Positions 3,201 to 61,715 of a DNA stretch of 64,000 nucleotides are shown here, piece by piece (within the stretch, counting starts at the first letter, position 1; the number at the start of each line of letters is the position of its first letter). The translations under genes were made by a program, and so were the position numbers. The DNA is taken from positions 310,992,001 through 311,056,000 of the forward strand of contig OZ024743.1 of the NCBI GenBank assembly GCA_964016885.1. Direction: 5' to 3'. This DNA is from Eledone cirrhosa. Taxonomy: Eukaryota. The notes under the pieces are model-generated. The model saw only the letters and a program-made list of their open reading frames with translations, ran no database searches and had not been told where the DNA came from.

Positions 3201-5708
3201 GCAGGGTACTTATGAGAATCCCCATTCCAGCCTGTGCGGTCCTTTTCACAACATACCTAAATTAGAAACCGTTTATTTATATTAATGATAAATAAGAAAT
3301 AACATCCTTACCGTTGAGGTAGAAAGTACACATAGCCCTCTGGGGGAGGAGGTGCCAGGGATGACACTGAAAAAGAATTTTATGGATTACATAAATTTCT
3401 ATACATATAATGACAAATAAATTCTATGAAGTAAAGCCATGAAATAAGAAATTTTAATCCGAAAAATATTTTTTATTTTTCTCTCTATCTCTTTTTCTTT
3501 TTTATCTATTGAGAAATTTAGTTGAGATAAATGTTTTACGGTAATTTGCTTTGTCTTGTCTCACTTGAGTCAGTTTAGCGCCTTATTTGCCGCAGGTTAA
3601 ATTTTAGTTCAATCGCTGATCAGCAACCCTTGGTTTATGCATAGTCAAAAACAAATTAAATAACTCTTTTGTTTAGTCCCTAAACCAAGAGTTTGAATCA
3701 TGTATCATGAAATAAACATGGTTTCGGTATTCGATCGATATAAATTAATTTGGCTCCGAGCTAATGGACGTCCATCCGTTTCGACAAAACATGTTCTAGT
3801 TCTTCAAGCAACGAAACAGCCTACAACTGAATGAACGTATAATTAGTTAACACGTGTACTCTTACAATTCTCAACTATATTCAGCGTGAAAGTGTGTGAC
3901 AAGATTGGTTCTTTGAATTGAAACTACAACTTTCCAGTTGAATTGACTGGCAAAGGGTGAAATGAAGATTTCATTATATTACTATCGTGAGCTCGGTCCT
4001 TAAAGCTAATAGATATTCACTTCACTACGTGTATAATTCTGACTAATTTCAGCATATCTTTGTGTCACTATATTAAGTATGTTCGTTCGCCCTTAATTAT
4101 GCTGTCTTCGCCCAGAAAGAATCCTTGGTTAATTTATTTCTGAGCCTTAGTTTACGATTCTCGTTTATCAAAATGTTTTTGTTTTTTTTCTGTAGGTATG
4201 TAAGAATATAATGAATAATGTGTCTTTCCCTTTTTAAATCAGTAGTGTTCTTTTTAGTAGGTTTTATTTAAATTATTTTATTTAATGTTAATCCATTAGC
4301 CCCTCTTGCTCCCTAAAGAATATAGGGTTGGGAGGGCGGGAAATCCAGTCAGTATGGTTGCAAATCTGATCACGAGCTTGCTTCTAGATCAGGATTTTAA
4401 CTGTTAGACTTTAACCAAGTCTTGACAAGTCACCCTCCTCGCTATGCGTACCACTGACTCAATAGTGCACACGATTACCTTGAATGTTGTTCAATTAATT
4501 CTTGTTTATTCTACCATACTGTAAATAATTCTATGTGTTAAATAATATATGTATCTCCTTCTTTTCTAACTCATTTTGCTCCCTGCAGAGCGTTAGAGAA
4601 TTCATTTATGCATAGCAAATAATTTATGTGTCAAAACTACAATTTACAGTTACAATCAACATTTAGAAGAACTGTGTGTGTGGTGTGGTGTGGGTGAGGG
4701 CGTCTGGTGGACCTCAATCGGTTCTGACAAGTGTTCCAGTTATTTGAAGAACGAAACAACCTATTAATGTTCGGGTAGTTGAGCATTCCACAAACACGCA
4801 AGAAAAACATACCTAACGATGGGGTGTCCAGAGAGCTGATGGTCTAGGAGGAAAGTACTGAAAATAGAGGTTAGTGCGGGCGGGGGGGGGCACGGACACA
4901 CATAGGTGATGAAATGAAGTGAAACGAGTGAGTCAGGAGTGCCTGAATAGAGGAGACAAGAGATCATTATAGTAACAATAGAAGAGGCACATGGAGGAGA
5001 CAGCACATCTCTAGGCCAGATGCTGAGGTGTCAGACAGTGACTTTAAAACGATGGCTAATCTACAGGATGCAGCCTAGCGTCCCAGTGTCAACAACAGCA
5101 ACACCACCACCCCAGATGTTACTTTTATCGAAACCACACTGGTCTTAACTCGTATGAAAAAAGATTTATTCAACGACGACAAAGATTTATATATTCGTAT
5201 TACTTCGTTTGCTATCTATGTTCTATGATAAATAAAAGGCCAAGGACGACTTTACCTCTCAAATCTCTGGTATTGACAAATTAAGTTTCTGGAATGTACA
5301 CAGTTAATTTAAAGAATGCCATCCATTCCCTAAAGAAACGTTATATTTTATCTGATTATTAACTTTTCTTCCCTGCGTAACTGATTTTGTCTTTCATCCT
5401 TTTTCACAATAGCAGCTATCCATTGAAATTGGTTTGATACAACTAATTATGACTCTCACCCGTATATCTGCTGTCTTCTAATAGAATAAATCCTAATATT
5501 TAGTCTAGTGATATTGATGGTTGTGACAATAGCTATTCTGTCTATACAGAGTTTTTCTTTTATTTCGTTTTGTTTTCTTCTATATTAAGTATAACGCTTC
5601 CTTCGGGAAAAATAAATTACATTTCACAGACTTCTATTTTACAACATGACACAGACAGACGCTCCAGACGTTTATAAAATATAATGAATTTAGGTTCACA
5701 TGTTTCTT

Positions 5709-6119
5709 ACAACCTCGTAAATATGTAGAATTTGTATGTAGTTTGTTGTAAAAGTTAAGCATCAGATGATGAAGTGGTCTTATGAAGCTTCGTATCATCG
5801 GAATCAACAAAACTCTTCCTATGATACTTTTTATGATATAATATTACAACCTCGTAAATATGTAGAATTTGTATGTAGTTTGTTGTAAAAGTTAAGCATC
5901 AGATGATGAAGTGGTCTTATGAAGCTTCGTATCATCGGAATCAACAAAACTCTTCCTATGATACTTTTTATGATATAATATTACAACCTCGTAAATATGT
6001 AGAATTTGTATGTAGTTTGTTGTAAAAGTTAAGCATCAGATGATGAAGTGGTCTTATGAAGCTTCGTATCATCGGAATCAACAAAACTCTTCCTATGATA
6101 CTTTTTATGATATAATATT
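5709..6119. repeat. Three tandem copies of a 137-bp unit
   Basis: ACAACCTCGTAAATATGTAG starts at 5709, 5846 and 5983; copies look identical. Confidence 0.95.
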
Positions 6120-6443
6120 TTTAATACAATTTCCCTTCTAGTAGTTATTAATTATATTAATTATATTCTCTCGGCAAAGTATAGCTATTTCTAGTGTTTG
6201 TATGCCTTAGACATTACTAGTACTTCGTTTACCATCTATGTTATATGTTTAAATACTTCTTGATAAATAGAGACATTTGTTGATGTTCGCAATAGGAATT
6301 GTATGATGGTATGAATTGAACAAGGGCAGCCATACCATAGGAGCCCTTCAATAAAAGAGGAAAGAAAAGGAGTCCATCGTCAGATTGGACCAAGGAAACT
6401 ATAATCATACACAAGAAACTCCAAGTAGCAGGCTACTGACATG

Positions 6444-6495
<52 letters not shown>

Positions 6496-6987
6496 CAGGA
6501 TATGAAAAAAAAATGTGTTGTCTTAAAGAAGACATGACAACGCAAATAGAGATCTAAATATCGAGTACAACACCAGAGGTCGTTAGCCCCCCACCCCCCA
6601 ACCCCCACCCCCCACGGGGGGGGGGGGGGTGTTCGCATAGCTACGGCTCCTAAAATCGTATTTCGAAAGAAATACGAAATGTCTATACATATTGTATAAA
6701 GCTATGCTTGAAGCGAAATCCTATTTCTTTTCTACTATAAGTTGAGCCAACTTATGCAGCTTCATATGCAAATGAGATTAATCACCTCATTTACACAGAC
6801 GAGAAAACTATATGTTCTCGGCTGTTTTCAAGTCCAGCAGTCGCAGAGCAGTGGCAGCGATCGTCCCGACGATGGCCAGTCAAGCTTGAAATGGATAGAC
6901 GGTTTTCCCCCTTGCTTCTGCTGGACAAGACCAGAGGGAGTTAGCCCCCTGGTGTTCGCATAGCTACGGCTTCGAAATTTCTATACA

Positions 6988-7785: not shown

Positions 7786-10700
7786 TGTGTAGGATACCTT
7801 CGTAAATAGCCAAAATGGTGCATAATGGAAAAATAGCCCTGTAAGTGACATAACCGTGAAATGGGGACAAAACAAATTTGACGTAAATCGACATAAACTA
7901 TTTTCATCATTCGAGAAATATTTTTAATAACTATTAAAAAAATATTTTTCAGTGATTTCTCAGTGAATATGATTTCAAAACTATAAGTTGTTTGTACTTC
8001 AAGTATCTATATTTGAGCTTTCTTTAAACAGACGATATTTATTTTAATTATCAGAAAAGCATTAAGTGAATATGACTGAAAAATACCAGTTGGTTTTAAA
8101 CAGTAGGTGTTTATATTTTTGCTTTTGTTAAAAAGAATATTTCAATTATTTAGAAATATTTTAAAGTGAATTTGATTTCACAAATAGCTTTATTTACATA
8201 GACAATATCTTCATTTTTTAAAAATTATTTTCGAGTGAATACGATGGAAAAAATATTTCTTGGCATATTTAAAAAATATTCTTAAGTGAAAATGACTTAA
8301 AAAATACAAATTATTTGTACACTGAATATATATATTTCAGCTCTCTTTAAACAGAATATTTTAATTATTAATAAGTATTTTTTAAGTGAATATGATTTGA
8401 AAAATAGGAGTTGTTTAAACATACAATATTTTCATTATTTAGAAATATTTAAAAATGCTGATTTAAAAAAAAAAATTTTTTGAAGTAATAGGAACTTTTT
8501 CTAAGGTGAATACGATTTTCGATTCTTAATTAATGAGGAAGAAAGAAAACATCTGGTTGGTCTATCGATAGTGGAAAGAAAGCACGGCTAAGGAGAGCCG
8601 AAGAAGGTGAGGAAGATAGTGGTCAACGCCAACAAGATCGGGACAGGCATGCGAATAGAAGGATCGATGAGACTGATAAAGCAAGGGCTGCGCGTCTGGC
8701 GGAACAGAGGGAAAGAGACAGAAGCAGGAGAGATCATGAATCGGATGGTCGGAGAGCTGAGCGTCAGGCGGAACAGAGGGAAAGAGACAGAAGCAGGAGA
8801 GATCATGAATCGGATGGTCGGAGAACTGAACATCTTTGCCAACAAACCAGTAGGGATAGAGCAAGGACAGTTCAACGACGTGACCTCTCTGCTGATGTTG
8901 GACAGATGAATAAGATCTGTGTCTGTTGACATGAAATGTTTTTCATGGTGAAACTGCTAACTTTTTCTGTATGAATGGAAAGTCAGGCTGGGGAATCTGC
9001 AGCCTTTACCCCAGGAACTTCACAGTTTATTTAGTACTGATCAACCTAGGGCAAACGAGTTCAGAAAGAACTCGTTCCAAATTACATCTTTTGGGGCCGA
9101 AGAAGTTCGTTCCTCAAGGTCAAATTCACCGTTACATCGGTTCCTTAATCCCCAATCCCAACGAACAACCCCAATTTCTTCAAATTTGCTTCTTGGATCC
9201 TCAGGATAGTGTTGATTTCAGGACAGGATACTCCATAACGATGGCATTCAGCGCGACATAGTTGAATTATTGGAAATAAAACTCAGGCAATATAACCTTT
9301 ACGTTGCTTCATTTCGAATGGCAGAAGAATAAATTAAAAATATTCCCGAAGCTTTAATTATTATTGATCCTGATAGGGGACCAGCAATGGAACATTTTAG
9401 AGAAGATTCAATGCACAAACTGCAAACGAAGTTGCCGTTATTATACAAAACAGCACCGAACTTCAAGCAAAAGCACGGCACATTGTGTTGAAAGAAAAAG
9501 GCAAATAATCTCAGTGTCCCCTCGGTCCTATGACAGTTTGCAGTATGTTCCATTTTTTCCTTTTGGCGATGACGGATTGCCATCCGTCATCGCCAAAAGG
9601 AAATGTTAATGAGCAACAACAATGCGCTACTATGCCTATCGAATAATGAACCATGAGAATGAATTCAATCAACTTCTCAGAGGCGGTCGTTTATTTCAGC
9701 AATATTTGGTTGACATGGTTGCGAAGATTGAAAGAGATAGACTGCAATACATCCGAATGAATCAAACATGATTGCGATCTACAACATACAAGGGCCTTAC
9801 TGACGCATTGAATGATGAATACGATTTTCGCAATATTGGCAGACGAATGATATTCTCTTCCGCATTTGTCGGTGGACCGAGATATATGATGGAACGATGC
9901 CAGGATGCCACATACGGAAATACGGAAATCCTTCGTTCTTCATCACAATTACATGAAATCCAAACTGGCCCGAAATCCGGCATAACCTATTCCTGAATCA
10001 GAAGCCCCCATGACAGGCCAGATTTAATTGCCAGAGTATTTTTTCTGAAGCGGAAACTGTTAAGAAAGTATCTTACTGGAGTAGAGGGCCTATTTGGCAA
10101 GTGCATTGCTTACGTGCTGACAGACGAATATCAAAAGCGAGGTCTTCCTCGTGTGCACTGTTTGCTATGTCTCAATGAAGCCTCCAAACCCAGACCACAG
10201 GAATATGATAAATTTGTTCAAGCCGAAATACCAGATCCTAACAAAGATCCAGAGGGTCATGAATTGGTCCTGAAGCACATGATCCACGGTCCGAATTGCT
10301 CTAACAATTCGCCGTGTTGGAAAGATGGAACGTGCAGTAAGCGGTGCTCTAAGTCTTTCAATGAATATACATTGTGTGGAGAGGACTCTTATCCTGTGTA
10401 CAGAAGACGGTCTCCAGGAATGGGAGGATTTGAGGGGCACCAAGAAGGAAGGGGAAGCCGAAATATAACTTCGGAATGGGTTGTTCCCTACTATATGAAA
10501 CTATTAAAACTGTTCAACTGCCACCTAAACGTAGAGATGTGCTCTTCCGTGAAATCGATCAAATACGTTATCAAATATACCATGAAGGGCAGTGATCAGG
10601 CTATGTTTGGAGTGTACAGGGAAGATGAGATAATACAGTATTTAACAGGAAGATATATCGGTCCTTCAGAAGCTGTTGCCTTGGTACTTGGATTTCCAAT

Positions 10701-13657
10701 TCATGAGAGAGAACCCGCCGTATTTCGCCTTCAAGTTCATCTACCTGGGGAAAATCAAATCTTCTTTCGAGTCAATGCTGCTGTTAAAGTAAACAATAAC
10801 ATGGCTAAGACGACTCTGACTGAGTTCATGGATCTTTGCAATCGCGATCCTTTTGCAAAAGTATTATGCCGATGTGCCAAAGTTTTACACTTGGAGTAAT
10901 AATAGATGGGAAATGAGAAAGGTGGGGAAAACCGTTGAGCAGTATCTAGGGATTTTTTAGGCGAACGTTTTGGGACGAGTATACACTGTTTCTCCACGAA
11001 GTGGTGACCTGTATTATTTAAGACTCCTTCTGCATCACGTCAAAGGGCCAATATCCTTCAACTCTTTGAAAATGTGTGATGGGGAACTCCTGACATTATT
11101 CAAAGACGTCTGCAGAGAGAAAGGTTTGCTTCAGTCAGATGATCATTGGCAGCAGACTCTGGAAGATGCTGAATGAACACGGCTTCCCAAAGCCATGAGA
11201 GATCTATTCATCATGCTCGTCACAAATACGGAAATTGACAATTCCAGTGCTTTATGGGCTCGATTTAAGCATTCGATGTCTGAGGATTACCTTCAAATAG
11301 AAAATAGGGCTACCAGAAACTCTAACCTTTTGATTAGCGAGAGACATTATGATCAATGTCTTCTGTATTTTGAAGACAAACTTAACGACCTGGGCAAAAG
11401 TCTTAGTGACTTTAACTTGCTAAGGCCAAATAATATTGTTGCTAATCAGAATATTGGCAATTTGCAGTTATTGCATGAATTGCAATGCAGCAGAGAAGAG
11501 CAGCGACGATTTGTAAAAGAGACGGAGCCTCTATTGAATAGTGATCAAAAGCACGTGTACGACTTCGTTTGTAACAGTTTAGAGACGAACGCATCTGCAT
11601 TGATTTTCATTGACGCTCCAGGTGCAACAGGGAAGACATTCATGATTAACTTAATTCTTTCAAAAGTCAGGGGAAACGGCGACGTGGCTGTTGCTGTTGC
11701 GTCATCTGGCATTGCCGCAATACTGATGCCTGGTGGAAGAACAGCGCATTCTAGGTTCAAAATACCGATAGTAGTGAAAGAAAATGGTCTGTGCAACATT
11801 GATAAAAGCTCAAAGACGGCAAACCTCTACCAGCATACAAGGGTGATTCTTTGGGATGAGTGTCTTATGACTCGGAGGGAAAGCTTCGAAGCTGTTGACC
11901 TCACTCTGCGTGACATATGCGACAACAATGAGACATTCGGTGTAATTTTGACAATTTGCTGTGGCGATTTCCATCAGCTTTTTCCAGTAGTGAAAAGGGG
12001 AAATGAAGCGGACGTGGAAAACGCATGCATTAAAAAATACTATTTATGGCGAAGCTTCAAAAGATTTCAGTTGAACACAAACATGTGATTAGGTGGGGCA
12101 GCAGGAGACTATTGGATATTGGAGAAGATAAGATAAAAAAAAAACTGAAAATGAGGAAATTATTTTGCCAAAAGAAATGGTTCTCCAAGCAACAACTATG
12201 GAAGAATGTATTGATTTCATCTACCCCTCATTCGATAATCCAGCTGAAGTGTTTTCGAACAATTGCATATTAGTACCTCTCAATGAAATGATGAGAAGCA
12301 TCAATTCCACCTGTATCAGACGCTTCCCTGGAACCATAAAAGAGTACGATCCTATAATTATGTGAGTGATGGTGCGAATGCCACTGATTTCCCGACTGAA
12401 TTCCTTGATTCGGTTGAACTATCAGGACTGCCACCACATAACCTGGAATTTAAAAAAGGATCGCCAATAATTCTTATGAGAAACTTGAATCCTCCAAGGC
12501 TTTGTAATGGAACGCGCATGATCGTGGAAGAACTGCACGACAATCTCATAGTAGCAAGAATCAGCACTGCTGCTTTCAGAAATGAGATCGTTATGATACC
12601 TAGAATAAGAATTAATATATCCTAAGGTGAGGATATCCCTTTGCAGCGAAGCCAAATCCCAGTTCAATCGTGCTTCGCTATGACTATTCATAAAGCACAA
12701 GGACAAACTATTGGTTTATCTGGAACGACCTGTATTCCAACACGGTCAACTGTATGTAGCCCTTAGCCGCGGAAAACGAAAAGAAAATTTCAGAGTGTTT
12801 CTGAAAGATACCCAGTCAACTAAGAATGTTGTCATCAAAAGCATTCTTTTGAACAAACTGTAACAGTGTAAATATGAGAAAATGTTGATTCCGACGTCAG
12901 AAAATGAAAGGAAAAGAGAAAACTAAGACAAGTAAGAATAATTTCTTTCAAATTTGTGTAAATAAAACCAGATTTTCATTAACAGTGCAACTTTTTAAGC
13001 AGAAAAATCTTTCAGAACAAACAGTCAAGCATCCAGAGAAATATAGAAAACAGAATTTTGAAGTGGAGTGATTGGATAGCTATTAGTGAAAAATGATTTG
13101 ATATTTTCTTTGTGAAAATATTTGTGAATAATACAGTGAAAAGACAACTTCGCGTAAATCGGACCACGGGTTCCCGAGATACGCGGGTTTTTTTGCGGGT
13201 ACCTTTATAAATAGCCAAATCAGCGCACAATGGGAAAATTCTTTGAAAGTAAGGTACCATTGAAATGTGAATACAAACGCAGATAGTGGGTGTGAGAGAG
13301 AGGGGAAGAGAGCTGGTGGTGTTGTTGAATGAAATTATGACAGGTGACTTCAAAGAATCGAATACATCATTACTGTATCTAGCTTGAATTTGGTGACTGA
13401 ATATTAAGTTATATGTATCTTATAACTTGTGTTAGGACAGGATGTATGTGTGTGTGTGTCTGTGACAAGTGTATATAGGCCACAGACACCCACACACACA
13501 GACACACATATATATATACACGTACATATACACACACACGTATATATATATATTGGCTTTCCAATGTCATTTAACATTATACACATTTTGTGTATATTTT
13601 AATTATTTTTAAATTATTTTTAAGTGAACATGAACCAACGGGTCATGGGTGGTCTAG
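6988..13657 (+). mobile_element. Helitron 1 (autonomous-type, decayed) with both termini
   Basis: 5' TC (A|TCTATATACTACTAAAAC) at 6988; 3' hairpin CATGAACC-AACG-GGTCATG then CTAG at 13654-13657 followed by T; RepHel coding remnants inside. Confidence 0.85.
8535..12861 (+). pseudogene. Helitron Rep/PIF1 helicase (RepHel) pseudogene, multiple frameshifts and stops
   Basis: Rep motifs EYQKRGLPRVHCL (HUH altered) and IKYVIKYTMKG; YYLRLLLHHVKGPISF; PIF1 motifs DAPGATGKTF, ASSGIAA..GGRTAHSRFKIP, WDE, GDFHQLFPV, LMRNLNPPRLCNGTR, FAMTIHKAQGQT. Confidence 0.95.
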
Positions 13658-40013: not shown

Positions 40014-40070
40014 ACTGCCTGAAGAGGTCACAGCTAATGATGGCTGTCACCGAAATATATATACACCAGT
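40014..40070 (+). ncRNA. Type I hammerhead of family Y (3' strand of stem I altered)
   Basis: ACTGC CTGAAGA GGTCACAGC-TAATGATG-GCTGTCACC GAAA TATATA TA; homologous to 46211-46265. Confidence 0.7.
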
Positions 40071-56119: not shown

Positions 56120-59100
56120 TGGAGGGCTACTTTGTAAACCACATTTTTGTCAATCTTCCGGGAGCGTAGTAAAAGAGATTGGCCGAGTTTCCAACACTTG
56201 AACATCCCATATACAGTTGTCCGTGTGAAAAGCATGGAGTACTGAGGTCCAGCCCAACCACATTTAGTGACTGCCCCTGGGCTTTGTTAATGGTCATTGC
56301 AAAACTTAATCGAATGGGAAATTGGACTCTTTTCATCGGAAAGACACAGTCAGTTGGAATAGGTGGAACTCGGGAAATACAAACAGAGTCGCCAGCGCCT
56401 TTTCCCGTAATGATTGTAGCCTCGAGAACGTCATCCAACAATTGCGCTATAACCAAGCGTGTGCCATTGCAAAGCCGAGGAGGTTCCAAGTTTCTCAAGA
56501 GTATGATGGAACTTCCAAGTCTTAGGCAGAGTTTATGCGGTGGCATTCTCGATGGCTCTTGTGAGTTTAAAAACTCTGTTGGATAAAACGTTACTTGCGT
56601 CGGATCCGTAATCGAATCAATCGAAGCATAACATCGCTCTTGGGAAGGAAGTTGATGAAGCAGACATGTGTTAAGAGCTCGGACGGTGGCATTTGTAGGA
56701 GCTAAGATGGCCCTTTCACATCCATTCATGACTGACGTAATTGTTGAGCGGTCGGGGTAAACTCTTGTGCAAATGTCCTCAGAGCTGGAAACGTTGTTAC
56801 CGATGGTACTTATGTCAACCAAACCGTTTACGTCGATTGGTAAGTTCCCATTACCAACATCAATAACTTTGAACTAAAGTAATTGTCACCGTCTTGTTGG
56901 TGAAGAATCGATCGCATGTTGATGGTTAACTTTGTCGACTGGACGAAGCGGCAAAGATGAGAATGTTTAATGCAAGCATCTATTTCATCAACTGGTTGGC
57001 CTTTGGGGACAATGGGAAGAGTTTGACGAAAATCCCCAGCAAGAAGCAGAACGACGCCACCGAACTGTTTAAAGTTGGAGCTCAGGTCTTGTAGCGTTGT
57101 ATTGATTGCATTAAGTCCATTCTTGTGGGACATTGTTGCCTCGTCCCAGACAATCAATTTGCATTTTTGAAGGACAGCAGCCTCATCAAAATTCTACTTT
57201 ATATTGGTCGTCGGATTTTCAACATAACCGATGTTAAGGGGAAGCTTAAATGTTGAATGGACTTTTCTGCCGCTGTCTAGCAGTGTTGCTGCTATTCCTG
57301 AAGACGCCATTGCAATGGCAATCTGTCCACGCTGGCGAACTTTGGCAAGAAGGAGGTTGAGGAGAAATGTCTTTCCTGTGCCACCTGGCGCATCAAGGAA
57401 GTGGATGCCACCGTTGGTATCTTCAAGCATGGTCAAAACAAAAGTATAGACATCAGCTTGTTCAAGATTCAAATGTTTTTCTCTTTATTGAATGTAGGAC
57501 AGAAGCCTGGCAGCATCGTAGCATGTCTCCCTTACTAGGGGGCGGTTACAAACAGCCTCATTTTCTCTTTTACGGGATTCCATACAGTAGTTCTTCAAGG
57601 GACGGCCACCCATTTCCAAAAGTATATCTTCTAGAAATATGAGACGGCAGTTGTAGATTTCAGGTGTAAACTGTAAATTCATGTGTGTGGGCGCGAAGCG
57701 AGATTGCATTAGGATGCCCAAGCACATGTTGTCGCGATATTTCTCCCAGAAAGAATGTGGATTCCCAATACTGCAGTACACCAGCATAACGGCAAAAAGC
57801 TTACGAAGAGCAATTGGTGACTGAAACATTGATGCTTCATGGAGGGCGTAGTCAGAGTGGTCATCATTGTCGAGAAGACCTAATTTGCTGCAGGCCTCTT
57901 TAAATATTGAACAAATATGGCCATTGACGGTACGAAGGTCTTCAAAGGAAGTTGGACCATTGACAACGTGCAATAGAAGACGAAGCATCCCTTTGTGAAA
58001 AGTGTCCACGCTTTCTTCTTTGCCAACAGCGGGAAAATTTATTCCACGTGTAGAATGTAGACAACTCCGCATAGAGAAGTGTTCTGGCTAGAGAGTCAGA
58101 AGTATGGGTTCAAAGAATCCTGTAAGGGTCGTTCTTCGAGGTTGTCTTGCACAGTCAAGCATATTTTCTTGGTTAAAATACACCCGTTGACCATTCTCCA
58201 AATGAACTCTGAGGTGAATAACTACAGCTTATCGGAAAACTGTATATTCGCTAAAATGCCTCGTTAGAAGAGATGTAGCGTCCAGTTTGTAAAAACGTGA
58301 CTTCATCTGTGGCGGCATCAGGGTTATCGGTCTTAGCCAACTCAATAACTGCTCGATCGGCTCCCTTATGAACATACTTGCAGATGTATTGGATTGATTT
58401 TACGGAGTTGCAGAATTCAACATTAATGTGGGCTGAAAACATTTTACAAAGCCCCTTGTTATGTGGTACAACCCATCGGTTGGCGATATTGAAATCTTGA
58501 CCACCAATCATTGTTATATTTGCCGTATGTCCACCTTCCTGTGGCGCCCTGCGACGGTATAAAGGGTAGCCATCATCACCAGTTTTGGTTTCATGGATAA
58601 GTTTACGTGGGTAACGCTTTGTACATTTCCCATTATCCATACATGCAGATTTTGGATTTAGGTGGCCACACGATCCATGGATCATGTAGGCTTTTATAAT
58701 TTGAAAAAGGACAGGGTCTTCTTGGGGATTTGGTAATTCAGCACTTATAACGGAATCAACATCAGTTGACATGAGTTTTTTTTAAGCCAAAGGAGAATAT
58801 GGGCATGTGGGAGTCCCCTCTTCTGCCATTCTACGGTGTACATGAAACACCTTACTGGTCCGTATTTTATAACATCATTATTTTCATAAGTGGATAAGGG
58901 CGGTGGATTGGCAGTATCGGTAGAGGGTCGGACGCCATGCTTTGACGCATAGAGTTACGGCCCTTGCCATTCTGAGTTCAAATCCCGCCCAGGTTAACTT
59001 TGCCTTTCATCCTTACGGGGTCGATAAAATAAAGTACCAGTAATGCACTGGGTATTTGCTGGCCTTGTGCCAAAAGTAGAAACAATTATTTTCATAAGTT

Positions 59101-60864
59101 TTAGGTGAAATACTCTAGACGTGATATCATGCCTGCGTGAAGGATTTTGGCAATGAAGTAACTGAGACTGGATGTCAAACCATTTGGGATTGCATGTGAA
59201 GGTGATTAAAAGATCAGGACGGCCACAATGGCGGACATAGGTGAGAGCATCCTTCATTGTTTCATGCATGTAACAGGGGCCTCCAGTGTATGACGATGGG
59301 AGAATGACAGAAAGCCCAACATCCGAAGCAATAACCTGATCATTTTGGTTGGCTTCGTCACGTAGATTGCCGTATTATTCTAAACGCAGTTCCTTTTGAT
59401 GGTGTCTTATCCATTGGAGGCGTTCAGTGTCAATCTGGAAAGGGAGGAAATTGTTGTGGTAAATATTCAGTGAGCTGGCTAAGGAAATTTTCTGAAGGAA
59501 ATCATAAAATAAGAAATATTTACCTTAGCAAATACGTCTACACAGTATTGATTGAGGAGCATCCGTGTTCTATGCAGAATGTTGATATCGCTTTTGCGAA
59601 CCATAAGCCTAAATGCATAAAATTCCATTTGTGAAATGGTTTTCCGTGGTTGAAGATGCATTAAAGTTACCGGATTACACTTTGGCAAGTCAATGCGGTA
59701 GCCATCGTCCCCAAAGGGGAACAGTAACGGATATTGGAGGGCATCATATGCAGGATGAAGTTCATTTATTTTTCGAAGACGCGAGTCCTGCCATTCAAGA
59801 ACAATATCACGGTTTGAACCACTCTCATTAGGACGTGTTATAAGCACCGCAACTTCCTCGGTTTGGGGTCTGTTAAAGCAACCCTGATGCTGCCCTGGTG
59901 GAGCGCGGTCACCTCGAATGACAACTTTGAATTGATTGGTGTTAGCATCTCTGCGCTGAAAAGCAGTTTTGAAAATGGTGTTGTAGGGGTTTATGGTATG
60001 AAGCATATATTGAGGGCCTGCAGAAGAAAAGGTATTGTTCCTTTAGCAACTGAGGCTCTTCGTGCCGTTTCTTCAGGTCCATTCCCCATAAATTAAATCT
60101 GAAGAAAACTGTGTTCATCGTCATCTTGTGGAATAAGGGAGCCAATCTGATGGTAAATTTGGCCTGCACTTTGAATGTGGGCATATAATTTCCATGTTTT
60201 ATTGGTGTATAACCAAAGCTTGTCATTTGGAAAGCAAAATTGTAGGCTCTTATGTTTCTAAGAAAGTGTTTAGAATCAGAGTGATCTCCAAGCAGCAGAG
60301 AATTCTAAGGTTCGGCATCGACTTGTAAATGAAGCAATCTAACCGTTCCATTGGTGCAGCATATACCGGTAGATTCTGCTGGCCACCTCATTGCGTTACA
60401 ATGGACGCAAACAGTTGACATGCTACCAATGATGATATGTGGGTGGGATGCGTAGTCCTCTTGGAGGCTGTAATGAAAAGCCTTCTTAGACCAGTAACAG
60501 GAAGAAACCCTCGGAAAAGAAAGACATGAGAACGCATTTTCCGTTGAGAATCAGCCGCAAGCCTTGTTGCTCTTTGGTCAACAGTCCCTAAAGCACGGCT
60601 ATTTGAAGTACAAGCGGCATCGCAAACAAGCTGGCGTTCTGCTTGTTCAGCAGTCTGTAATGCTCTGGTCTTCGAAGTAGCATTGCGAGCGAGCCGGAGT
60701 TCTGCTTGTTCAGTTGTCTGTAATGCTCTGGCGATCGAAGTAGAAACAGCATTGCGAGCACACCGTAGCATACATTGTTCTTCTGTCTCGCTTGCGCACA
60801 AAGAACGCAAAGCAAAAGCATTTCTTGTTCTTCTTCCAATGTGACTCTTGCTTTTTCGAGGCAT
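56120..60864 (-). pseudogene. Helitron RepHel pseudogene
   Basis: ATG at 60862-60864 (MPRKSK); AYDALQYPLLFPFGDDG; GRPDLLITFTCNPKW; EWQKRGLPHAHILLWL (~58790-58840); IQYICKYVHKG; DAPGGTGKTF; GDFRQTLPIV; CNGTRL; FAMTINKAQGQS; FSHGQLY. Frameshifted. Confidence 0.96.
58892..59084 (+). mobile_element. SINE inserted in the Helitron Rep domain with a 15-bp TSD
   Basis: ATTATTTTCATAAGT at 58877-58891 and 59085-59099. Confidence 0.95.
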
Positions 60865-60997
60865 TCTATGGAAAATCTGTAATTGAATAAATCTGAAACA
60901 AATCAAATCAAAGAAATTTACCTGGTTGTTGTTTATAGGACTTCTAATGAAGATTTTGAATGCAAAGTCCCATAAAGATTAGAAAATGGTGATATAT

Positions 60998-61715
60998 ATA
61001 AGTATGTATACGTACATACATATATGTATACAGATGTATAGTAGTATGTATATATATATACATACATGCAAACATATATATATGTACGTATGGATTCACC
61101 AAACATTTATTATAATGCACGGTGTGTTTGTAAAGAAACATCCCGTATATGTATGCACGTATACATACTTATATTTAAGTAACAGCCGTACTAAGAGTGG
61201 GAAATGAAATTTCGTTTCATTTTTTCCGTTTATCGTTTTCGGTGCACCCGGCCGATTAACCCACTCGATATGCAAATTGGGCTACTCAGCCGTTCATATG
61301 CATAAGAAAAGTATATACTTTCGGACGTTCAACTATCTGGCAGGAAGGTATACGTTGCTGACGATAGCTAACAAGCTTGAAACTAGTACAGCGTTCCTTT
61401 GTCAGTGTTGAACAAACGAGCAACGGCGGTTGCTAGACACTACGGCTTAATACGGGATGTTTGTTTACAAACACACCGAGCATTATAATAAATGTTTGGT
61501 GAATCCATACGTAAATATATATATGTGTGCATGTATGTATATATATATACATACTACTGTACGTCTGTATACATATATGTATGTACGTATACATACTTAT
61601 ATTTAAGTAACAGCCGTACTAAGAGTGGGAAATGAAATTTCTTTTCATTTTTTCCGATATATATATATATATATCGGAAAAAATGAAAAGAAATTTCATT
61701 TCCCACTCTTATATA
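60998..61715 (+). mobile_element. Diverged copy of the 470-bp hammerhead unit (~1.1 units plus inverted pieces) nested in Helitron 2
   Basis: 61145-61660 aligns by eye to 24245-24742; 60998-61148 is the reverse complement of ~61450-61600; small inverted piece at 61675-61710. Confidence 0.9.
61352..61394 (+). ncRNA. Minimal type I hammerhead ribozyme (diverged unit)
   Basis: ACGTTG CTGACGA TAGCTAACAAGCTT GAAA CTAG TA CAGCGT. Confidence 0.92.

Follow-up and report, generated by a model that had tools for sequence, protein, structure and literature searches.

The closest described relatives of the element studied here are the non-LTR retrozymes of metazoans. As the main text of Cervera and de la Pena (2020, PMC7229834) presents them, these are tandem non-coding units of 150-450 nt with one type I hammerhead each, low GC content and no LTR, which reach thousands of copies, have a highly self-paired circular fold and co-exist with Penelope-like elements (PLEs). 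Their cleavage and their RNA circles have been demonstrated, and PLEs are named as strong candidates only. Li, Clavereau and Pollet (2026, 10.64898/2026.07.22.740005), who saw no cleavage in eight of the nine frog elements tested, describe non-LTR retrozymes as non-autonomous PLE derivatives. Both papers, in their main texts, propose mobilization by PLEs without showing the step. Covariation is not mentioned in the main text of the first; the main text of the second contains neither "covariation" nor "compensatory", and "chimeric" occurs there in a reference only. Among the titles listed by our literature searches, none concerned the family described below or its fusions with PLEs, and the supplements of these two papers may list the family.

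The insertion chemistry is better described for the PLEs themselves. The purified protein of Poseidon, a PLE of Anolis, cuts both strands of AT-rich DNA and starts at two internal sites, giving a "tail", and ribozyme cutting is dispensable in vitro (Frangieh et al. 2024, PMC11167929). Craig et al. (2021, PMC8557442) tie a bias toward (TA)n to the CX2-5CxxC linker of Neptune, Nematis and Naiad elements, and describe non-autonomous Chlamys elements among the EN+ PLEs.

The window analyzed here is a 64,000-nt stretch of the Eledone cirrhosa assembly (contig OZ024743.1), and its copy at 61 kb belongs to a family of small non-coding mobile repeats with a hammerhead motif, which numbers about 28,000 copies. 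The core pattern gave 28,412 matches in the 3.0-Gb assembly, compared to 2 for the reversed control. These are spread over many contigs, and the copies are dispersed with fixed ends, not gathered in large arrays. Units are 428-493 nt long (periods of 461-493 and 428), a length that lies at or above the range in PMC7229834; their GC content is about 0.36, and they have no LTR and encode no protein. Three insertions of the family lie in the window:

15120..17239, minus strand: array A, a retrozyme arm of 4.5 units with its short end at about 15120
19723..24745: array B, two-armed, with a minus arm to 23930 that has a long end and a plus arm from 23931 that has a short end
60993..61148, minus strand: left arm of the 61-kb copy, inverted and 5'-truncated, ending at the short end in (TA)n
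61146..61656, plus strand: right arm of the 61-kb copy, 1.19 units of the 428-nt retrozyme, subfamily C
61620..61711: fold-back duplication of the right arm's end, a perfect 46-bp repeat across the TA tract

The two arms of the 61-kb copy overlap by 3 nt and form an inverted repeat (I1) of 156 nt at 96% identity; the right arm stops in (TA)n, at a form of the long end that is 5 nt short. Because both halves of the fold-back at 61620..61711 have a private change in common, this duplication arose at the DNA or cDNA level.

With short tandem non-coding units that each bear one type I hammerhead, a high copy number, dispersal, low GC content, no LTR and a stable self-paired monomer in circular folds, the 61-kb family shares every testable feature of a non-LTR retrozyme, and it resembles the elements of PMC7229834 in each of these respects as well as in the PLEs that accompany it. 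Like the elements of Li et al. (2026), it co-occurs with PLEs, is found as monomers, dimers and multimers, and may use a PLE enzyme. In contrast, the type III hammerhead within LTRs, the primer binding site and the 4-bp target duplication of plant LTR retrozymes are not matched, the topology here being type I and the units head-to-tail. The family is of a known kind, and its footprints are unusually readable.

For the analyses that follow we studied about 200 loci, some picked by likeness to the window copies and others the first matches on one contig, so that the shares of subfamilies among sampled loci are not their shares in the genome. Thirty-four overlapping loci were removed from locus-level counts. 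The 157 distinct cores fell into ten subfamilies once 2 singleton clusters were dropped, and 11 unresolved segments of hairpin H8 (see below) were left out of the subfamily and covariation analysis.

The ribozyme lies within the right arm of the 61-kb copy, inside an extended stem I arm:

61327..61413, plus strand: extended stem I arm (61327-33/61407-13, 61337-42/61400-05, 61345-48/61396-99)
61352..61394, plus strand: type I hammerhead, read from the sequence
61352-61357/61389-61394, plus strand: stem I, 6 bp, with an adjoining 3-nt bulge and the long extension
61358-64, plus strand: CTGACGA of the hammerhead core
61366-69/61374-77, plus strand: stem II, 4 bp, preceded by a U.U
61379-82, plus strand: GAAA
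61382-87, plus strand: palindromic ACTAGT
after A61388, plus strand: predicted cleavage site

The site has the core of a type I hammerhead (CUGANGA, GAAA and NUH) together with its three stems, of which stem I is open. Stem III is a single base pair with a palindromic loop, which forms no hairpin alone and gives a duplex of -4.8 kcal/mol. A 1-bp helix III with a palindromic tetraloop is also found in the axolotl ribozyme HHR_Amex1, and a U.U at the base of helix II in HHR_Amex2, both of which work better as dimers (PMC7229834). Rfam returned no match at the gathering score and otherwise microRNA-type noise at E values up to 5, with no hammerhead. The catalytic core is absent from minimum-energy folds, and it is invariant across the ten subfamilies except at N7. 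A preliminary description of this DNA had named N7 as the only core change; that holds among the three variants of the window, but across the ten subfamilies the loop II letter 61372 varies too.

Stem I is paired in 98.8% of cells in an alignment of 28 copies. The variants first noted there, ACGGTG/CATCGT in arrays A and B and ACGTTG/CAGCGT at 61 kb, are present in the sequence as described. The variable pair, 61355:61391, is formed in 385 of 396 sampled copies and unpaired in 11, with G.U in 204, U.G in 94, A-U in 83, C-G in 2 and U-A in 2. The direct swap from G.U to U.G that had been proposed gives way to three main states, because a third subfamily with A-U at this position exists (2,644 pattern matches).

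Outside the ribozyme, the predicted fold of the 61-kb unit contains further helices and hairpins:

61184..61190, plus strand: 5' strand of long-range helix H1, pairing with 61441-61447
61195..61266, plus strand: helix H2 domain (61195-201/61260-66), containing the long end at 61233
61270..61277, plus strand: ATGCAAAT, an octamer-like site and candidate DNA promoter element
61308..61321, plus strand: AAAGTATATACTTT palindrome, dispensable
61419..61434, plus strand: hairpin H8, changed once on both sides and twice on one side
61441..61447, plus strand: 3' strand of H1, with 61612-61618 of the next unit as an alternative partner, a pairing that encloses the short end
61459..61501, plus strand: GTTTG/CAAAC hairpin and a variable hairpin with an ATAATA loop
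61507..61609, plus strand: long TA-rich hairpin followed by a 6-bp hairpin (61594-61609) with the short end 61602 in its loop, in the circular fold

Circular folds of three units reached z scores of -13.4, -8.2 and -5.3 (40 shuffles each), and the core alone -4.5 to -5.1 (60 shuffles); the antisense core also folds well, at -2.8 to -3.1. To avoid circularity, pairs were folded from one copy and substitutions scored in another. The fold of the 61-kb copy has 83 pairs, of which the 46 substitutions of the array-B copy touch 17 (25 under random placement). Scored on the array-B copy, 6 of the 61-kb pairs are broken, compared to 16.0 under the null (0 of 5,000 permutations as low; P < 0.0002), and 6 are compensated on both sides, compared to 1.3 (P 0.0012). 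In the reverse direction, from the array-B fold, 9 pairs are broken instead of 15.6 (P 0.006) and 4 show two-sided changes instead of 0.9 (P 0.008). The antisense fold of the 61-kb copy gave no signal (16 broken vs 14.9), and that of the array-B copy passed weakly (P 0.035 and 0.017). A test of pairs shared by the folds (12 kept, 1 broken) is circular, and we do not rely on it.

An independent tool agreed with these scores in part: among the 28 aligned copies, 98.0% of cells are paired, compared to 30-40% in slid controls. Cells with a two-sided change number 52, compared to 22.6 in a control that ignores kinship, and the number of pairs with such a change is not above shuffle in these copies (5 vs 4.9; 442 of 500). 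On a tree built without the tested columns, each tested pair underwent 1 to 5 changes. The compensations claimed in the preliminary description are real, but few of them are independent: the covariation is significant, and it rests on roughly half a dozen two-sided events. The best of these lie in the long-range helices H1 and H2, which that description had missed. H1 has two compensated pairs, with states A-U/U-A/U.G and G-C/A-U, and H2 pair 61200:61261 is A-U in 173, G-C in 52, G.U in 3 and a mismatch in 1 of 229 copies.

The smaller hairpins fit this picture unevenly. The variants of the 61419-61434 hairpin are real, and belong to a single homologous stem in which 61419:61434 is A-U, G.U or G-C. 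Those at 61474-61501 are also present, but what had looked like different stems is again one homologous stem with point compensations (the variable pair is C-G in 15, G-C in 11 and G.G in 2 of 28 copies), the array-B form being a short loop deletion. The GTTTG/CAAAC hairpin is retained. Retention of the AAAGTATATACTTT palindrome extends only to the three variants of the window: an 8-nt deletion cuts it in 31 of 344 copies, which make up a whole subfamily. Since one successful subfamily lost it, not every hairpin matters. The site ATGCAAAT, which we take to be octamer-like, is intact in 265 of 291 copies even as the bases it pairs with vary; in 13 of 28 copies the C-G pair 61273:61300 is lost, the C of the site staying and the partner changing. 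This strand may be kept as DNA. Some changes run through an amplified mismatch, G.G in the variable hairpin and A.G in H1. Selection on RNA structure thus reaches far beyond the ribozyme and acts on the ribozyme strand, as the cross-copy tests and helices H1 and H2 indicate, but the lost palindrome, the broken pair and the mismatches in amplified subfamilies stand against the earlier view that the whole unit is structured.

Private changes break 123 of the 166 pairs they touch, compared to 10 of 28 for subfamily states (Fisher P 1e-4); "private" was counted here per locus identifier, with overlapping loci unmerged. This contrast places the selection on the small set of source RNAs that gave rise to copies and not on the copies in the genome. 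Private changes are also about equally frequent everywhere, at 1.0 per paired column, 1.14 per unpaired column and 11 over the 12 core columns, so inserted copies decay neutrally. The RNA earlier called functional is functional in the sense of being useful to the element; we saw no host function, and once inserted the copies decay as neutral DNA would. A repeat can show genuine covariation even when the host gains nothing from it.

The ends of the insertions are informative about how the RNA is copied. Arms end at two fixed places, after which (TA)n follows: a short end at 61602, in the loop of the 6-bp hairpin, and a long end at 61233/61661, inside the H2 domain. In subfamily C the distance between the two is 59 nt; where a hairpin is longer, it is 62-68 nt. 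Another arm is joined head-to-head to 208 of the 354 arms, and the 5' end of 112 joins other flanking DNA. Of 69 two-armed insertions, 60 combine a short end with a long one, and the 61-kb copy is of the same kind. At least two ribozymes, with intact junctions, are present in 73 of 275 arms. Only 1 of 191 5' truncation points falls at the cleavage site (3.8 expected), and the length of the cleavage junction is exact in 395 of 397 copies. As 5' ends do not cluster at the cut and the junctions are exact, the enzyme reads through the cut, so that its template is a circle or an uncut multimer. Cleaved linear monomers used as templates with their 5' ends at the cut are ruled out by the same count of truncation points.

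Tandem and inverted 5'-truncated arms, a tail with two 3' ends and a microsatellite target are the marks of PLE mobilization. The retrozyme resembles EN+ PLEs (PMC11167929, PMC8557442) in its two 3' ends, AT-rich target and arm structure, and differs from them in the length of its tail, 59-68 nt compared to 30-40 nt, and in a unit without protein. Whereas the link drawn by Li et al. (2026) is likeness to pLTRs together with local tandem expansion, the link here comes from the insertion footprint and from fusions. One such fusion is in the window, next to array A:

17240..18427, plus strand: 5'-truncated PLE arm, 99% identical to intact copies, with its long end at 18427
17265-17867: GIY-YIG end of this arm
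near 18164-18208: the PLE's own minimal hammerhead, in the pLTR

The 5' end of array A, at 17239, is joined head-to-head to this PLE, which points away from it, through a 24-nt fold-back and without (TA)n. The fusion obeys the rule of the retrozyme insertions, with a short end from the retrozyme and a long end from the PLE. Intact copies of the PLE have a 4,286-nt unit and a 1,267-aa frame with reverse transcriptase motifs, a CX4CxxC linker and, at the C terminus, a GIY-YIG, features that suggest a Neptune- or Nematis-like element. A Pfam scan of the whole frame found nothing at E 0.01; scanned in pieces, the frame matched RVT_1 at E 8e-5 (below the cut-off of that model) and GIY-YIG at E 9e-5, and a search of solved structures gave one weak reverse transcriptase match. 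The PLE is young (41 matches at 100%) and abundant (14,346 tail matches). Its 4.3-kb insertions are likewise tandem and two-armed, with ends 60 nt apart; a short end is combined with a long one in 5 of 5 long loci and in all 17 loci with both outer ends resolved among the 30 examined. An intact autonomous partner that shares the retrozyme's footprint is present in this genome, and its protein would be the enzyme used. The retrozyme unit has no significant likeness to the pLTR of this partner beyond AT-rich bits (best E 0.008, in a TA tract), and in none of 205 loci was the end of a PLE frame followed by a retrozyme unit. The short end of a sister PLE (L011, L028, L047, L087, L278) is the same, and about 58 nt farther along comes its long end, which closes in CCG(C/T)TAT, close to the CCGTTTAT of the retrozyme.

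Array A and three further loci make four retrozyme-PLE fusion events in the 205 loci fetched, with none in the last 80 of these and none in the 30 PLE loci. In L022 a retrozyme arm with a short end meets a second arm that begins at a PLE long end and switches in line, after 90 nt and at a 4-nt microhomology, from PLE to retrozyme. In L039/L040 a retrozyme arm is fused to the reverse transcriptase piece and tail of a sister PLE. In L113 it stands head-to-head with a second PLE family (GIY-YIG, CNC...C...C linker), and this fusion is present twice, as an inverted duplication (3509-4107 and 5963-6560). The fusions are rare, involve three PLE families and could be the result of deletions between neighbors in shared (TA)n hot spots. 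Given this alternative and the three families, they indicate a likely clade and do not prove one enzyme. A PLE enzyme is the likely copier of the retrozyme.

We conclude that the 61-kb region is probably one two-armed insertion of a non-LTR retrozyme whose subfamilies have retained pairing over much of its length, likely because only RNAs with the correct fold went through reverse transcription and insertion, a step probably carried out by a Penelope-type enzyme. Tandem loci would be transcribed, and the hammerhead would cut as a dimer through its 1-bp stem III with the palindromic loop. Monomers would then be ligated into circles. A PLE protein would nick both strands of (TA)n, and cDNA would start at two sites inside the unit that H1 and H2 frame; the cDNA of each strand would run round the template until the two arms joined head-to-head. 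We advance more tentatively, and with somewhat more doubt than belief, a bolder form of this proposal: that H1 and H2 make up a protein-recruiting fold that directs a Neptune-like PLE reverse transcriptase to two fixed start sites on a small circular RNA to which the PLE is unrelated, and that each of the fused insertions (array A, L022, L039) goes back to one event, with a single enzyme complex beginning on retrozyme RNA at one strand of the DNA and on the PLE's own RNA at the opposite strand. If true, the fused insertions are a direct genomic record that names the enzyme spreading animal retrozymes. With a short RNA whose start sites are mapped, natural compensations and an intact young PLE at hand, the published in vitro assay offers a way to test the PLE step. 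Intact copies of the PLE in L157-L165 are a ready candidate for such work.

A circular template is not the only one compatible with the footprint. The same element could insert in the same PLE-type manner from an uncut tandem transcript, or from linear monomers joined by exact template jumps, the ribozyme being conserved for another step such as setting RNA ends. An uncut multimeric transcript leaves the same read-through footprint as a circle, and the 4.3-kb PLE, too, inserts as tandem units in two arms. Core variants that are common to all units of one insertion and found nowhere else, moreover, are rare (2, compared to 116 single-unit changes). However, the catalytic core is invariant in all ten subfamilies, and changes in the long TA hairpin that are common to all copies of an insertion include 10 A>G among 19, compared to 4 T>C (P 0.027), which fits, weakly, repeated copying of one edited molecule; single-copy changes there have no such bias (24 vs 34). 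We regard this account as rather unlikely. Three of the ten shared A>G changes of the long TA hairpin, in UA context, occur together in the two arms of L067 and may be an RNA-editing scar.

Other alternatives concern the covariation itself. That the pattern is partly mutational or promoter-driven, with A-to-I editing turning A-U into G.U and the octamer-like site kept as DNA, we consider rather unlikely, and it would be a contribution to the pattern, not a full rival. Several one-sided changes are indeed A-U/G.U (61355, 61346, 61422, 61279), and both the insertion-shared A>G excess and the pair broken on the side of the octamer-like site's partner point this way. Yet editing cannot yield A-U to U-A, C-G to G-C or A-U to U.G, and the TA hairpin has no A>G excess over all insertions once a subfamily-marker A>G site is excluded (46 vs 48, P 0.12). 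Nor is there an excess among non-majority changes in the 290-nt core, where we saw no A-to-I scars. A neutral satellite, with stems perfected at the DNA level by palindrome template switching and covariation produced by ancestry and alignment bias, would account for the fold-back at 61620-61711, for good folding of both strands and for the small number of independent events. It is already disfavored and seems to us very improbable: the partners in compensated pairs are separated by 60-260 nt, with intermediate G.U states that can form on the ribozyme strand only, the antisense fold of the 61-kb copy is silent, subfamily and private changes differ sharply, and the copies are dispersed with fixed ends. 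We give just as little credence to a structured RNA kept for host use as a domesticated circular or regulatory RNA. Circles of related retrozymes are abundant in coral, mussel and axolotl tissues (PMC7229834), but private mutations are equally frequent in paired, unpaired and core columns, and the subfamilies replace one another as mobile elements do.

The window contains other repeats besides this family. Further hammerhead-like cores of two other families lie at 40019 (plus), 46260 (minus), 54751 (plus) and 54625 (minus), with the pair at 54.6-54.8 kb standing head-to-head. A LINE-like reverse transcriptase fragment is found beside array B (25141-26028, minus strand; RVT_1 E 1.5e-5). Decayed Helitron-like stretches occupy 9997-12625 on the plus strand and 56127-60978 on the minus strand, with a PIF1 helicase match at 11177-12088 (E 2e-59). 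To the left of the (TA)n that holds the end of array A, a long inverted repeat at 14300-14760 resembles a further two-armed insertion into that hot spot.
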